A stretch of 57,788 bases of DNA, from IMG/VR virus record IMGVR_UViG_3300033076_000814, positions 1 through 57,788 of that record; one strand, written 5' to 3'. The DNA is from a virus. Lineage: Duplodnaviria > Caudoviricetes. How positions within the stretch are numbered: position 1 is the stretch's first letter; each line of letters begins with the position of its first letter. A program made the translations under genes and the position numbers. Below the pieces are notes generated by a model. It was not told the DNA's origin and did not search any database. It worked only from the letters and a program-made list of their open reading frames with translations. Below, piece after piece: positions 37,433 to 50,384 of the stretch.

Positions 37433-38173
37433 ATGACTTCAAACGAAAAAGAATTGAAAGGTTATTTGGGATTTGCTGAAAAAATGTCTGGATACGATGG
37501 TATGGACTATTTTGAGGGGGATCTTTCGTCATTTGACGATTACGATGACTTCGATGATTTCGATGGTGATGGGATGTCTTATGCATCTGGAACACCAGAA
37601 CAAAACATCTCTGATCCGTATGTAATCCAGTATAGCAATCCTACTGCTGGTACATTAACTGCGGTGTTGTTCGGATACAACAACAACTTTAACTCGCCTA
37701 CTTTTGGAAATCCACCAGCAATCGTTATTACGAACTTACAAGGTTCGTCTTATACTGCATTGTTAGGACAAACCAACAACAAGGCGTTCCAAATCGGAAA
37801 ATGGCGTTTCCAGTCTGCTAACCAATCTCAATTGGCACAGACTTTGACTATCAGCCATTTCGATGCGAATGGTAAACAATACTCAACTCCGTTGAACTTG
37901 TCTATCATGCGTGATGCATACCAGTTCCAAAATGACATTTTGGATGTAAATAAAGTGGTTACTATTGATGGTAACACACAAATTACATTCCCATTATTGC
38001 CAGTAACGGATTTGGTATTGTCTATGTTCCCTATCAGCGTTCTTTCTGCGAAAGCAGTATTGAATGGAGGTACTTCGCTTAACAAAGCGGTTGCACCTCG
38101 CCTTTCTGGTAAGAATGTAGCACCAGTTATCATCAACACTAACCAAAAGGTTGGTGGAGTTGTGAAGCGTTAA
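37433..38173 (+). CDS. Candidate major capsid protein (beta-rich, acidic N-terminal extension)
   Basis: Own promoter-terminator unit; many C-ending codons (aac, ttc, atc) suggesting high expression; beta-strand-rich; paralogue at 43409. Confidence 0.5.
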   Translation: MTSNEKELKGYLGFAEKMSGYDGMDYFEGDLSSFDDYDDFDDFDGDGMSYASGTPEQNISDPYVIQYSNPTAGTLTAVLFGYNNNFNSPTFGNPPAIVITNLQGSSYTALLGQTNNKAFQIGKWRFQSANQSQLAQTLTISHFDANGKQYSTPLNLSIMRDAYQFQNDILDVNKVVTIDGNTQITFPLLPVTDLVLSMFPISVLSAKAVLNGGTSLNKAVAPRLSGKNVAPVIINTNQKVGGVVKR

Positions 38174-38194
38174 TTCTATCTCGCACATAATAAG

Positions 38195-38227
38195 AAAGGC
38201 AGAGGCAGTAGCCTTTGCCTTTTTTTT
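38195..38227 (+). terminator. Intrinsic terminator
   Basis: aaggcagaggc-agta-gcctttgcctt followed by a T run. Confidence 0.9.
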
Positions 38228-38241
38228 ATTAAATTCAAATC

Positions 38242-38781
38242 ATGAAGACAAGAAAGCCAGAGAGAACAGATGAAAAAAAGAAGCGTATTACCTTACTTGG
38301 GGTAATTGCTAATGGATCAACTTCTGATGCAAGAAAATTGTTGAAGAAATATGATCAGCCAGATGCAATCAATCATGAGGATTTGGAGTACAAGTTGACT
38401 AAACTTTATTACGATACTCCAGATAAACTGGCACTTGAAAAAGAACTTGCGGAAATCCATCCGCACAAAGATTTTATCACAAAATATATCAAGCCAGAAC
38501 CGATCAAAGAAGAAACAATTTTGGATGAAAAATTTTCAACAAGCCAAGCTATTGGGTGTAGATGTAACCAAATTGGTTGTCCAGATTGCGAGGATCGTTT
38601 AGGTAGAACAAAAAAATCCAATGCTTGTGGATGTTCCTCATTTGAGGGAAATTCCAACGCTAATGGATCAGCAATTACAACAGAGCCATCGAACAAAGAA
38701 ATGGCTATTGGTAGTGGTATTTTATTGGTGGGAATGTTAGGAATAATTACTATATTCGCATTAAGTATCAATAAACAATGA
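38242..38781 (+). CDS. Cys-rich protein with C-terminal TM anchor
   Basis: EIHPHKD; CRC...CPDC...SNACGCSSFEGNSNANG; C-terminal TM. Confidence 0.7.
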   Translation: MKTRKPERTDEKKKRITLLGVIANGSTSDARKLLKKYDQPDAINHEDLEYKLTKLYYDTPDKLALEKELAEIHPHKDFITKYIKPEPIKEETILDEKFSTSQAIGCRCNQIGCPDCEDRLGRTKKSNACGCSSFEGNSNANGSAITTEPSNKEMAIGSGILLVGMLGIITIFALSINKQ

Positions 38782-39230
38782 TTGTAGTTGCAAAAGAAGA
38801 TTTACCAGTTTTAATCAACAATGACGAACATCGTAATTTCGTTGAAACTGACAAAATAATTCCGAAAGGAACAACCCTTGATGGTGAATTTATGAACATA
38901 AAAGGGTTAAGGAGAGGAAAAGAGTTTACCTATCGAGTTTTTAAAGACAAAGATGGGATTATTGTTTACGAAAAAAATATAGAACCTATGATGAAGTTTT
39001 CAAAAGCAGAGGGTGACACAAGAGTAATTGATATGCCAAGTGTAAAAGGAAACGCAAGAACTCATGCAATTGTTTCTGGTGTTTCTGGTGTAATTGCATT
39101 TGCAGTTGCAAAGCGTATGGGCAAAACTAATAAATCAGCATTTATTATTGCTGGTGTTACTGCCTTAGTTGGGTATGGTGTTGCCTCAATGGTTACATCT
39201 CAAAAGAACATTACTTACAAAAACGCATAA
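38778..39230 (+). CDS. Membrane protein with two C-terminal TM helices
   Basis: Hydrophobic helices after FSKAEG. Confidence 0.7.
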   Translation: MIVVAKEDLPVLINNDEHRNFVETDKIIPKGTTLDGEFMNIKGLRRGKEFTYRVFKDKDGIIVYEKNIEPMMKFSKAEGDTRVIDMPSVKGNARTHAIVSGVSGVIAFAVAKRMGKTNKSAFIIAGVTALVGYGVASMVTSQKNITYKNA

Positions 39231-39231
39231 A

Positions 39232-48294: not shown

Positions 48295-48298
48295 AAAC

Positions 48299-49150
48299 AT
48301 GGCACAGACAAAAACAAAGAAATCAAAAAAAGTATTAGTAATTGCTGGGGTAATCATCCTTGCAGTTGGCGGATACTTTGGTTATAAATATATCAAAGGC
48401 AAAAAAGATAAGAAAAAAGCCGAAGAAGAAGCCAAACGCCAAGAAGAACAAGCTAAAATTGATGCTCAAAATGTATCAACTGGTTCTGGTTCTGGTTCTG
48501 GTTCTGCTGGTTCTGGTTCTGCAACTTATTCTGCCAATCCATTTAAGTCTGCAACTGAATTGACTAATTTTCAAAAATGGGTTCTTGAAAAGAAAAAGGA
48601 TACAACAATTTTAGGTAATGCTGGTGCTGATGGTAAGTGGGGTAAAAACTCCGCATCTGCTTGGAACAAGTACGGAAAGGAATATCTTGGTTCTGGATCA
48701 ACTGCTGGAGAAAGCGGATCAGTTCCAGAGGCAGATATTAAAACTATTGTCAATTATGGTAGAGGTGCAAAATCAGACCGAACATATATTGCCAAAACAA
48801 AATACCCATCTTTCTTTACAGAATGGGCGAAAGCTATTCGCAAAAGACTTGAAAGCGGAGGCAAAGCATACACTACTTTTATTTGGTACAACCAAATTTA
48901 TGATAGCTATTATGGTAATCAAGTTGCCTCAAAACTATTGATGGGTAAAATTGCTTTTGCGAGAAATGGTTGTAAAATCAGAAAATCTCCAAAACAATCT
49001 GGGGAATATATTTTGACAACAAAAGATGCAAGTCTTGGTCAAATAGTTTCTTGGAGATACAATGTTGCTGAAAATCTTTTGTATGTAAAAACAGACAAAT
49101 ATTCAGATGGATATGGCTGGGCAAAATATCAATACATTTATACCAACTAA
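48299..49150 (+). CDS. N-anchored protein with peptidoglycan-binding-like motif and GS linker
   Basis: TM; GSGSGSGS; FQKWV...GADGKWGKNSASAW. Confidence 0.55.
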   Translation: MAQTKTKKSKKVLVIAGVIILAVGGYFGYKYIKGKKDKKKAEEEAKRQEEQAKIDAQNVSTGSGSGSGSAGSGSATYSANPFKSATELTNFQKWVLEKKKDTTILGNAGADGKWGKNSASAWNKYGKEYLGSGSTAGESGSVPEADIKTIVNYGRGAKSDRTYIAKTKYPSFFTEWAKAIRKRLESGGKAYTTFIWYNQIYDSYYGNQVASKLLMGKIAFARNGCKIRKSPKQSGEYILTTKDASLGQIVSWRYNVAENLLYVKTDKYSDGYGWAKYQYIYTN

Positions 49151-49151
49151 T

Positions 49152-49658
49152 ATGCAAGCAACAAGATTTATGTTATCCAATGGATTAAGTGAACTTAATC
49201 ATGGTGTTTATCATGATGTTTCACCTTATTCATGTGCTGATGGATCAAACATCAACAATGAGGATGAATTTGCAATGTCCGATGAAATAATGCTCGAATT
49301 TTCTAATGCCTCTGGTAAAAAGAGAAAAAAGAAAAAGAAAAGCCGAACTGGATTGGCTGGAATGAGGGATCGTAGGGATGCCAGACAAAAATCCAGACAA
49401 GATGCAAGAGATCGTAAATTGAAAATTAAGGAAAAGGAAGCAGAAACTCAAAATAAGACTGCCGAAGCCTTAAACAAGGTTGATCCAGCAGAGCAAAAGT
49501 TGATGGAGGAGTTGGCAACTGGCAGTAAAGATGCCAAAGCAGACGATAAAAAGGGCATGAGTAAAGGTTTGAAAATTGGTCTGATTGTCGGTGCAGTAGT
49601 GGTTGCTGGAGTTGTAACAATTCTTGTGATCAGAAAAATAAAAGCAAAAAAAAAGTAA
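49152..49658 (+). CDS. Basic C-terminally anchored membrane protein
   Basis: YSCADG, FSNASGKKRKKKKK; TM IGLIVGAVVVAGVVTILVI. Confidence 0.7.
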   Translation: MQATRFMLSNGLSELNHGVYHDVSPYSCADGSNINNEDEFAMSDEIMLEFSNASGKKRKKKKKSRTGLAGMRDRRDARQKSRQDARDRKLKIKEKEAETQNKTAEALNKVDPAEQKLMEELATGSKDAKADDKKGMSKGLKIGLIVGAVVVAGVVTILVIRKIKAKKK

Positions 49659-49676
49659 CTAAATAAATCGAGTAAA

Positions 49677-50384
49677 ATGATTGATGTAGAAACAACTGCT
49701 CCAGTATTTTCCTATGCTGATGGCAATACCAAAAAAGAATTTAAAACTGATCGTAAATCAGTTAGAGCATTACGAAAGGTAGGGAGAAAAGCAAAGCGAA
49801 ATGCAAGAAAGCTAAAGCGTGTCAAGTTGCGTAATGGCAAAACTGCTATGGTTTATGTCTTAACAAGATTAAAGCCAGTAAAAAAATCTGGTGCTGATGA
49901 AAGTTTATCGATCCAGTATGTAAAAACATATCCAGATAATACGACAAGCGTTGTGTTAGCGGAAGATGTTGTAAAAACTACTGATGGCAAATTTTTTGAC
50001 AAAAATGAAGTAGCAAAAGCCTTTGGCGTGGAAAAATCTGCGGTTACTCAACAGATGATTGATCGTTACATTATTCCAGTTGCTCCAACAACCGAAGCAT
50101 CTCCAACAACAACCGAAGTTCAAAAATCTCCAACTTCTGATGCTGGGGTGATTGTTCCAGAAGAAAAAGTTGTAATGGATGAGGATGGTAATCCATACGT
50201 TTCTGATGATTTAAAAGCAGATGGTGAAATTCTTGGATCAGATGATGTGAAAGAAGATGACAAGAAAGCACAAGGCGGTATGACAAAAAATCAAAAGATT
50301 GTTCTTTGGGTTGGTGTCGGACTTGCGGTTGTAATTATCGGAGTTGTCGTTTATCGAAAAATGTCAAGCAATAAAGGTAAATAA
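49677..50384 (+). CDS. C-terminally anchored membrane protein
   Basis: PVFSYADG, basic tract, TM IVLWVGVGLAVVIIGVVVY. Confidence 0.7.
   Translation: MIDVETTAPVFSYADGNTKKEFKTDRKSVRALRKVGRKAKRNARKLKRVKLRNGKTAMVYVLTRLKPVKKSGADESLSIQYVKTYPDNTTSVVLAEDVVKTTDGKFFDKNEVAKAFGVEKSAVTQQMIDRYIIPVAPTTEASPTTTEVQKSPTSDAGVIVPEEKVVMDEDGNPYVSDDLKADGEILGSDDVKEDDKKAQGGMTKNQKIVLWVGVGLAVVIIGVVVYRKMSSNKGK

Follow-up and report, generated by a model that had tools for sequence, protein, structure and literature searches.

Based on an analysis of a 57,788-base stretch of viral DNA (IMG/VR record IMGVR_UViG_3300033076_000814, hereafter the window), we describe a short motif that recurs across the proteins of one gene block (positions 37433-50384). 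The motif is real and strongly enriched, is conserved in position, and stands at the boundary between acidic leaders and the basic or structured parts of the proteins. We propose, with confidence a little short of an even chance, that precursor proteins are processed at this motif in a virion maturation system resembling those of adenovirus and phage T4 and run by a new zincin encoded at 42636-43412 within the same block. Many products of the block would be made as precursors whose leader, usually acidic and disordered, ends in a motif of the form (aromatic or Met)-Ser-(Asn/Tyr/x)-(Ala/Phe)-x-Gly; what follows would be a jelly-roll core in some of them and, in others, a segment rich in Lys and Arg that a C-terminal membrane helix anchors. 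The leaders would keep basic, DNA-binding or membrane-active segments neutral until the cut, and may guide the proteins into the particle. During or after assembly the zincin would bind the extended motif and cut at or beside it, stripping the acidic leaders, freeing jelly-roll cores, Lys/Arg-rich arms and tail-anchored core proteins, and splitting the multi-site 39232 protein into pieces. Each element of this model, namely that cleavage happens, which bond is cut, that 42636 is the enzyme and that the substrates are virion components, is one that we infer. Genes are named here by their first coordinate, and the motif-bearing genes and the candidate protease are as follows.

37433..38173, plus strand: predicted jelly-roll protein 1, 246 residues; MSYASG at nucleotides (nt) 37574-37591, core at residues 60-204.
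38242..38781, plus strand: Cys-rich protein with a C-terminal transmembrane (TM) helix; KSNACG, CSSFEG and NSNANG adjacent at nt 38614-38667.
38778..39230, plus strand: membrane protein, 150 residues; FSKAEG at nt 38997-39014, ~20 residues ahead of a hydrophobic segment.
39232..40467, plus strand: multi-site precursor-like protein, 411 residues; MSNAKG at nt 39337-39354, KSSFDG at nt 40216-40233, MSFATG at nt 40351-40368.
40727..41338, plus strand: protein with a C-terminal TM helix; ASNFDG at nt 40943-40960, FSNAGG at nt 41027-41044.
41778..42287, plus strand: membrane protein, 169 residues; TSKFSG at nt 42000-42017, after a conserved N-domain and ahead of the TM region.
42284..42631, plus strand: small tail-anchored basic protein; a conserved 10-residue N-terminal leader, then YSNAGG at nt 42314-42331.
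42636..43412, plus strand: candidate maturation protease, 258 residues; HEFSH at nt 43167-43181 (residues 178-182), EVGAD at nt 43221-43235 (residues 196-200).
43409..44371, plus strand: predicted jelly-roll protein 2, 320 residues; acidic leader, FSNISG at nt 43550-43567, Lys/Arg-rich arm, core.
44371..46617, plus strand: large repeat-rich protein, 748 residues, possibly a spike; LSNANG at nt 46363-46380.
49152..49658, plus strand: tail-anchored, very basic protein; YSCADG at nt 49227-49244, FSNASG at nt 49299-49316, then KKRKKKKKSR.
49677..50384, plus strand: tail-anchored basic protein; a 10-residue leader, then FSYADG at nt 49707-49724.

A first-pass annotation, made from the letters of the window alone, had listed a motif recurring across the proteins of this block, and every string on that list was found in the open reading frame (ORF) to which it had been assigned. 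The enrichment test that it suggested bears the recurrence out. The strict pattern [FYM]S[NYC][AF].G occurs seven times in the 19 block proteins (4203 residues) against a mean of 0.037 in 5000 within-protein shuffles, none of which reached seven (0/5000), and the core pattern S[NYC]A.G occurs ten times against 0.197 expected (again 0/5000 shuffles). In the 68 ORFs outside the block (14088 residues) the strict pattern appears once, at position 542 of the 14343 protein, a site that fits another motif, [FY]xxGG, as well. No DNA-level repeats lie over the motif sites, so the recurrence does not stem from recent duplication. These figures bear directly on the notion that the recurrence is a functionless by-product of composition, low complexity or shared leader ancestry, which we find hardly credible. 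Some leaders are paralogous, as are those of 42284 and 49677, and at least one instance, that in 44371, looks like chance; against this stand the shuffles, the lack of DNA repeats at the sites, invariant residues inside otherwise unalignable regions, and the presence of the motif in unrelated protein families and in loci where the protease is only ~35% identical.

The same annotation had claimed that the motif separates an acidic leader from a basic segment, and the net charge of the 30 residues before and the 30 residues after the motif agrees with this. The switch is most pronounced in 43409 (-13 before, +13 after), 49152 (-8, +12) and 39232 (-6, +12), and is seen as well in 40727 (-6, +3) and 49677 (-2, +12); the values are -12 and -2 for 37433, and +1 and +6 for 42284. 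A lineage-wide profile of 136 non-redundant sites has the same polarity. Acidic residues make up 30-38% of positions -3 to -1, against a background of 11.5%, position -2 is without a basic residue, and basic residues account for 18-27% of positions +2 to +8, against 12.9% in the background. The layout of single proteins follows suit. In 39232 a short leader and MSNAKG are succeeded by a very basic and then a very acidic stretch, a coiled middle, KSSFDG, MSFATG and a C-terminal TM helix, and in 40727 the FSNAGG site directly precedes a Gly/Ala-rich amphipathic segment.

Is the motif kept in related viruses? A query with the P-loop ATPase 34540 of the window found 11 viral loci with the same gene order, and to these were added sequence from five of those contigs, 14 loci in metagenome-assembled genomes (MAGs) and 18 protease-centred viral loci. 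Conservation in homologues had been named by the first-pass annotation as a check, and we counted an orthologue as retaining the motif when it carried it at the aligned position, with orthologue identities of 30-77% in the 43409, 37433 and 39232 families. Retention is complete in 43409 (12/12), where D47, F48, S49 and G53 are invariant across 13 sequences within flanks that cannot be aligned. It is high in 37433, with 13/16 strict matches and with Ala51 and Gly53 invariant in 15/15 members, down to 30% identity, and at the first site of 39232 (11/13); the later two sites of that protein are kept in 7/13 each. The TSKFSG of 41778, an instance that the earlier list had missed, is SNAxG-like in 10 of 13 orthologues (pattern S.[AFILV].G). 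Four of six orthologues keep the motif in 42284. For 49677 inspection by eye gave 3/3 (YSNANG, YSNAIG, MSNASG) and the script 2/4, with two rows misaligned. Of the three adjacent strings in 38242 the middle one is found in 7/14 and the outer two in 3/14 each, and the second site of 49152 is strictly retained in 3/6; variants seen among the orthologues of 49152 are FSNTNG, FYNADG and FKQGSG.

Moreover, the motif recurs around homologues of 42636 that are only 34-39% identical to it. The broad pattern is enriched in 7 of 10 MAG loci, where two or fewer of 300 shuffles reached the observed count, and the strict pattern in six of eight further viral loci (0/300 shuffles). In locus L032, whose protease is 35% identical, several proteins carry a leader SNFLDD-x-FSNAKG followed by Lys; this locus sits in a 375,071-base contig of a Bacteroidota MAG. 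Within the 37433 and 43409 families the leaders differ greatly in length and sequence, with the motif constant at their end.

The candidate enzyme is encoded within the block, flanked by 42284 and 43409. Related loci that span both the protease gene and the 43409 homologue have the former immediately upstream of the latter. The annotation had placed an HExxH...ExxAD peptidase gene here, and HEFSH and EVGAD are indeed present in the 42636-43412 product, which to judge from its sequence bears every hallmark of an active gluzincin. Its AlphaFold2 model has a predicted local distance difference test (pLDDT) score of 94.6 and consists of a beta-sandwich (residues 1-85) and a helical zincin-like domain, in which the HExxH motif lies in helix 169-184 and Glu196 at the start of helix 196-209. 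H178, E179 and H182 do not vary among 51 close homologues or among 72 diverse ones, and across the latter (~30% identity) the invariant columns are Pro57, His178, Glu179, His182, Glu196, Asp200 and Arg236, with A199 at least 90% conserved. The protein has neither a TM helix nor a signal sequence. Altogether 1184 homologous proteins in 507 clusters at 50% identity were found, none named by any source; a scan of viral contigs with the single 42636 sequence returned nothing, and it was the ATPase query and the protease alignment that found relatives.

To which peptidase family does 42636 belong? The E-x-x-A-D context after HExxH is a signature typical of M48. The closest structural matches to the catalytic domain are to BepA (6sar, Z 7.7, root-mean-square deviation (rmsd) 4.3, 120 residues; 6ait, Z 7.4), followed by 3c37 (Z 6.7), and the beta-sandwich resembles many GOLD, CBM and capsid-like sandwiches at Z ~8. 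The only Pfam match of 42636 is to M56 (E 0.079, 12.6 bits against a cut-off of 31). Among the 72 homologues the Pfam matches, all far below threshold, include several metallopeptidase families, with PhageMetallopep in five, M48 in two and M56 in two; M48 itself (PF01435) gave no match with 42636 and reached E 0.025 or worse in those two of 72 homologues. Searches of the PDB with sequence profiles of the protease, 37433, 33409 and ATPase families returned no relative. We accordingly regard 42636, on its sequence, as a predicted peptidase of a new gluzincin-like family that is nearest to M48 without being a member of it. An M60/enhancin-like reading, left as unlikely, drew poor Foldseek rows only (rmsd ~19-20, probability 0.23-0.41), and the top 50 of a structural re-alignment contained no M60 entry.

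Docking of 42636 with zinc against residues 28-75 of 37433 gave a median score of 0.34 (runs 0.01, 0.50 and 0.34), compared with 0.02 for the best of three controls. The runs agree in at least 42% of contacts, and the partner has a pLDDT of at least 37. In calibration the docking mark was reached by 58/80 solved complexes and 2/110 mismatched pairs, and at scores of 0.60 or below it was reached by only 7/80 solved complexes and by both passing mismatches. The docking thus weakly suggests a pairing of 42636 with 37433. The earlier proposal that the motif is a maturation cleavage site is accordingly strengthened by the motif itself, by its boundary position and by the gene with gluzincin hallmarks alongside, and gains little where the assignment of 42636 to it depends on docking.

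Several observations weigh against this interpretation. Conservation is uneven: the first site of 49152 is strictly kept in 1/6 orthologues and the two sites of 40727 in 3/13 and 5/13, with looser [NSG][FA][DS]G and SN forms in most alignment rows of the latter. The FSKAEG of 38778, listed by the first-pass annotation, keeps its Ser in 0/12 orthologues and survives there only as the looser L[GN]A[DNT]x. The LSNANG of 44371 is retained in 0/11 and is therefore probably a chance match. Within the 37433 family Ser is replaced by Asp or Ala in 2/15 members. Loci L029, L030 and L035 (MAG) and L059 and L061 (viral) are without clear motif enrichment. Several sites lie a few residues ahead of a TM helix or in Cys-rich sequence, places at which a cut would have no obvious purpose. 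On the side of the enzyme, 42636 passes no curated family threshold, its M48 fold match is middling (Z below 8 being a range rated common), and a docking pass of the kind obtained errs more often than not unless a good prior backs it, one run here having scored 0.01. Additionally, the favoured cut is drawn from sequence patterns and models; tandem copies of the motif, which are frequent in the further viral loci, would equally suit a multivalent binding signal; and the second HExxH domain, in 18219, or a host enzyme could be the protease.

The tandem copies lead to a different explanation, in which the motif is bound and left uncut as an assembly or targeting signal (a peptide onto which a capsid protein, scaffold or membrane-insertion factor could dock) and the zincin has another role. 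We hold this to be unlikely. The short N-terminal leaders are themselves conserved, and the pattern of conservation would suit any recognition site. An uncut signal fits less well with sites at the borders of disordered leaders and folded or basic parts, and between the segments of 39232, with a motif that holds its place at the end of leaders of widely differing length and sequence, and with a conserved protease gene in the block at every locus that covers it.

The Ser replacements bear on another possibility, that the motif is a modification site, for example for glycosylation by a glycosyltransferase (GT)-like gene. A GT2-like gene (36075-36983; Glycos_transf_2 E 0.0036, below cut-off) lies directly upstream of the block, and among the polar residues of the motif Ser varies least. 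However, Ser does vary whereas Ala and Gly do not, which makes a modification sequon improbable and points to recognition of the backbone or of small residues. Homologues of the GT gene were found in only six related loci, against up to 17 for motif-bearing proteins. The Bacteroidota O-glycosylation sequon, D-[ST]-[AILVMT], does not fit, since the residue before Ser is aromatic here. We consider modification a very unlikely account.

Other processing mechanisms were considered and rejected. Nodavirus-type Asn autocleavage at N-A does not agree with an Asn that is Tyr or Phe in most 37433-family members and variable elsewhere. For signal peptidase I, Ala-x-Gly fits the -3/-1 rule, but the upstream residues are acidic, not hydrophobic. 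Double-glycine bacteriocin leaders and sortase-type C-terminal signals would account only for some sites, namely those that end in GG or precede a TM helix.

If the motif is a cleavage site, the cut could be made by some enzyme other than 42636. The second HExxH motif of the window is encoded by a giant ORF to the left of the block.

18219..22715, plus strand: giant protein, 1498 residues; HEFAH at nt 20079-20093; rival candidate protease.

The HEFAH lies in a region of 18219 matching phrog_22901 (E 2.9e-44). According to PMC5512222, zincin-like domains of phage and plasmid polyvalent proteins have been proposed to process proteins packaged in the particle, multidomain ones included; this precedent and the weak docking favour 18219 or a host protease. 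On the other hand, 42636 lies within the motif block and co-occurs with the motif down to ~35% identity, and proteins around 18219 carry the different motif [FY]xxGG, which suggests a separate system. This second motif, of the form (Lys)-[Phe/Tyr]-x-x-Gly-Gly, has 30 copies in the window where shuffles give 7.15 (0/1000), its carriers within 14343-30142 being the proteins 14343, 16745, 18219, 23875 and 29192, with 17 copies in the 1732-residue 23875 alone. The HEFAH region shows no specific relationship to the 42636 family (hhalign probability 13.6%, with 41 columns aligned, in the motif helix only), 18219 being the one polyvalent-type sequence compared. We therefore rate an enzyme other than 42636 as quite unlikely. 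The neatest reading is of two separate motif and protease pairs in one genome; a crossed assignment is possible. The [FY]xxGG motif may correspond to linkers in giant proteins of the polyvalent type, or to sites at which these are processed. Weak Pfam matches (DUF5661, DUF3140, DUF6496) lie close to [FY]xxGG sites, and the one in 29192 starts at such a site.

What kind of particle would a maturation system run by 42636 serve? The block 37433-50384 is best understood as a particle-protein module whose products would be virion components; the label of structural proteins, which the first-pass annotation had applied, is suggested by the jelly-roll model of 37433, the many TM proteins and the late-gene context. 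Twelve to fourteen of its 19 ORFs have a predicted hydrophobic helix, mostly C-terminal, and Pfam and PHROGs searches of the block proteins gave nothing above threshold. In 37433 a conserved N-terminal helix is followed by an acidic disordered leader, the motif and a beta-sandwich core. In its AlphaFold2 model residues 1-59 have pLDDT below 50 and the core 73-90, the leader ending at the motif. Viral jelly rolls head the structural matches of the core: the coat protein of grapevine fanleaf virus (GFLV; Z 7.0), PR772 chain O (Z 6.4) and STIV A223 (Z 6.3), and, lower down, FLiP, phiCjT23, PBCV-1 and PRD1 (Z 5.1-5.7); Foldseek added weak matches to comovirus and picorna-like coats (E 1.6e-3 or worse), and all structural-match scores of 37433 fall in the range rated common. 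The 43409 core is homologous to that of 37433 (family comparison by hhalign, probability 93.4%, E 2.4e-7), so that profiles and models point to a pair of jelly-roll paralogues, both of which carry the motif after an acidic leader. The protein 33409 was considered as a double-jelly-roll capsid protein and set aside: its family consensus is helical and acidic and has no matches.

A candidate for DNA packaging lies to the left of the block.

34540..35370, plus strand: P-loop ATPase, 276 residues; candidate FtsK/HerA-type packaging ATPase.

It matches Pfam DUF87 with E 5.1e-4 and 20.6 bits against a cut-off of 23.2, its neighbour clusters in a protein atlas carry DUF87 (17%) and Zot (14%), and it is 59-80% identical across the related loci. 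These matches hint weakly at a packaging role. Phage_portal, Phage_capsid and TerL_ATPase had no matches in five related contigs (57-84 kb, incomplete, so that divergent genes could escape). Terminase_6N had none in two viral contigs (73 and 84 kb), and among three MAGs had one below-cut-off match, on contig C168 of G007, which may or may not be the contig holding locus L028. That these searches gave no tailed-phage match above cut-off, and that the 73-kb relative G002 continues at its right end into small minus-strand genes only, tilts the balance towards a possible tailless, membrane-containing particle.

Such a particle recalls Thermus phage P23-77 and its haloarchaeal relatives, which have two single-jelly-roll capsid proteins and a small packaging ATPase. 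The genome studied here encodes two predicted paralogous jelly-roll proteins, a P-loop ATPase with a weak HerA/DUF87 signal and many small TM proteins. It differs in that the contigs are 57-170 kb, against ~17-30 kb in that group, that the virion type is deduced from genes, and that sequence searches matched none of the solved capsid proteins. We know of no maturation protease in the P23-77 group.

How does the proposed system compare with known maturation proteases? Dedicated enzymes of this type are serine proteases in tailed phages and cysteine proteases in adenoviruses, poxviruses and their relatives. Adenain, the adenovirus enzyme, cuts at the consensus sites (M/I/L)XGX-G and (M/I/L)XGG-X in pIIIa, pVI, pVII, pVIII, pX and pTP. 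The likeness lies in one virus-encoded protease acting on a short site that has a hydrophobic residue some positions ahead of a Gly and recurs in many virion precursors, among which are basic DNA-condensing and membrane-active proteins in a jelly-roll capsid context. In contrast, adenain is a cysteine protease while 42636 has the hallmarks of a zincin, the motif is another one, the host is bacterial, and cleavage here is proposed from sequence. In T4 (gp21) and HK97 (gp4), head proteins carry N-terminal leaders that act in assembly before the protease takes them off at a simple consensus site; examples are the HK97 delta domain and the sequences that target T4 internal proteins to the capsid. 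The 10-residue leaders of 42284 and 49677 resemble such targeting sequences. These enzymes, however, are serine proteases of tailed phages with sites ending in Glu, and a search of the five related contigs detected none of the portal, terminase and HK97 capsid families. In poxviruses the I7 cysteine protease cuts at an AG-X consensus, and the G1 metalloprotease carries an inverted HxxEH. The resemblance is in a simple small-residue site present in several core precursors and in a metalloprotease involved in morphogenesis; the differences are that G1 is of another clan, that the AG-X cutter is a cysteine protease and that the virus infects eukaryotes.

With the M48 peptidases (HtpX, Ste24, BepA, Oma1) 42636 shares HExxH and a downstream Glu in E-x-x-A-D, and BepA is its best structural match. 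It differs from them in a Glu only 14 residues past the second His, in having no membrane helices and in an extra N-terminal beta-sandwich. The polyvalent proteins, as described in PMC5512222, offer the example of a phage zincin predicted to act on particle-borne proteins, and giant proteins of this type, one with an HExxH, are encoded in the genome studied here; 42636 is by comparison a small stand-alone protein of 258 residues, which sets it outside the zincins of polyvalent proteins, and its presumed substrates are small membrane and jelly-roll proteins. By analogy, the proposed system would be functionally like adenovirus, poxvirus or T4 maturation and would differ from all of them in enzyme class, motif and virus lineage. 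To our knowledge no phage metalloprotease maturation system with a defined consensus site has been described. Virus-focused literature searches yielded nothing on this lineage, on a phage metalloprotease with a maturation consensus site, or on such an enzyme in membrane-containing phages.

What would be gained if cleavage by 42636 is true? The protease family is large and wholly unannotated, and the motif would provide a testable rule from which the mature termini of dozens of dark-matter proteins could be predicted. By masking charge, acidic pro-leaders would be a means to handle very basic core proteins, and the system would give a handle on an abundant environmental phage group that is without every standard marker gene. 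The widest picture that we would draw is a doubtful one when taken as a whole. It is of a widespread, uncultured lineage of Bacteroidota phages, with contigs of 57-170 kb, whose tailless membrane particle would be built from two paralogous jelly-roll proteins and matured in an adenovirus-like cascade by the new zinc protease. Acidic pro-leaders would mask basic DNA-binding arms and membrane-anchored core proteins, and a second motif and zincin pair would serve giant packaged proteins.

The host assignment in this picture comes from MAG binning labels. Protease homologues occur in MAGs labelled Saprospira, Saprospiraceae, Bacteroidota, Crocinitomicaceae, Chitinophaga, Bacteroidales and Ignavibacteria, and a few archaeal- or alphaproteobacterial-labelled bins contain them too. 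As these labels are mostly Bacteroidota, Bacteroidota are the likely hosts. One IMG/VR record (L051) bears a GVMAG giant-virus MAG label and carries a bacterial-phage-like block; the label is probably a binning artefact. Among 50,697 GenBank phage records, a set from which those close to this genome may be missing, there was no match to the protease, 37433 or the ATPase by tblastn, nor to the block by megablast.

The IMG/VR record is linear, with a completeness of 48% by CheckV and a GC content of ~33%, and the plus strand holds nearly all genes as far as ~52 kb. Replication-type genes (ParB-like, DnaB, a DnaA-C-like helix-turn-helix protein, RusA) occupy the left third. To their right come two PAPS-reductase-like proteins and the giant ORFs (1498 and 1732 residues), then lysin-like genes, the small P-loop ATPase 34540 and the motif block, with a holin beyond it at 50517. 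Between the replication genes and the giant ORFs the minus strand (12870-14062) encodes an OmpA-family protein and an SLT transglycosylase-domain protein. Within the block, 47457-47879 and 47884-48294 are tandem paralogous genes (140 and 136 residues; DNA identity 72-78%, repeats D1 and D2) that are without a family match and both terminate in a common short C-terminal sequence. No terminal repeats were found in the window. The window and G002 start at an identical point, ~300 bases ahead of the first common gene, which may be a true genome end or a joint assembly break. In the early-gene region of the left arm of G002 (L043, 10765-11370) lies a 201-residue ORF whose best match in the window is the jelly-roll protein 37433, a similarity which suggests that this relative has an extra 37433 paralogue outside its structural block.

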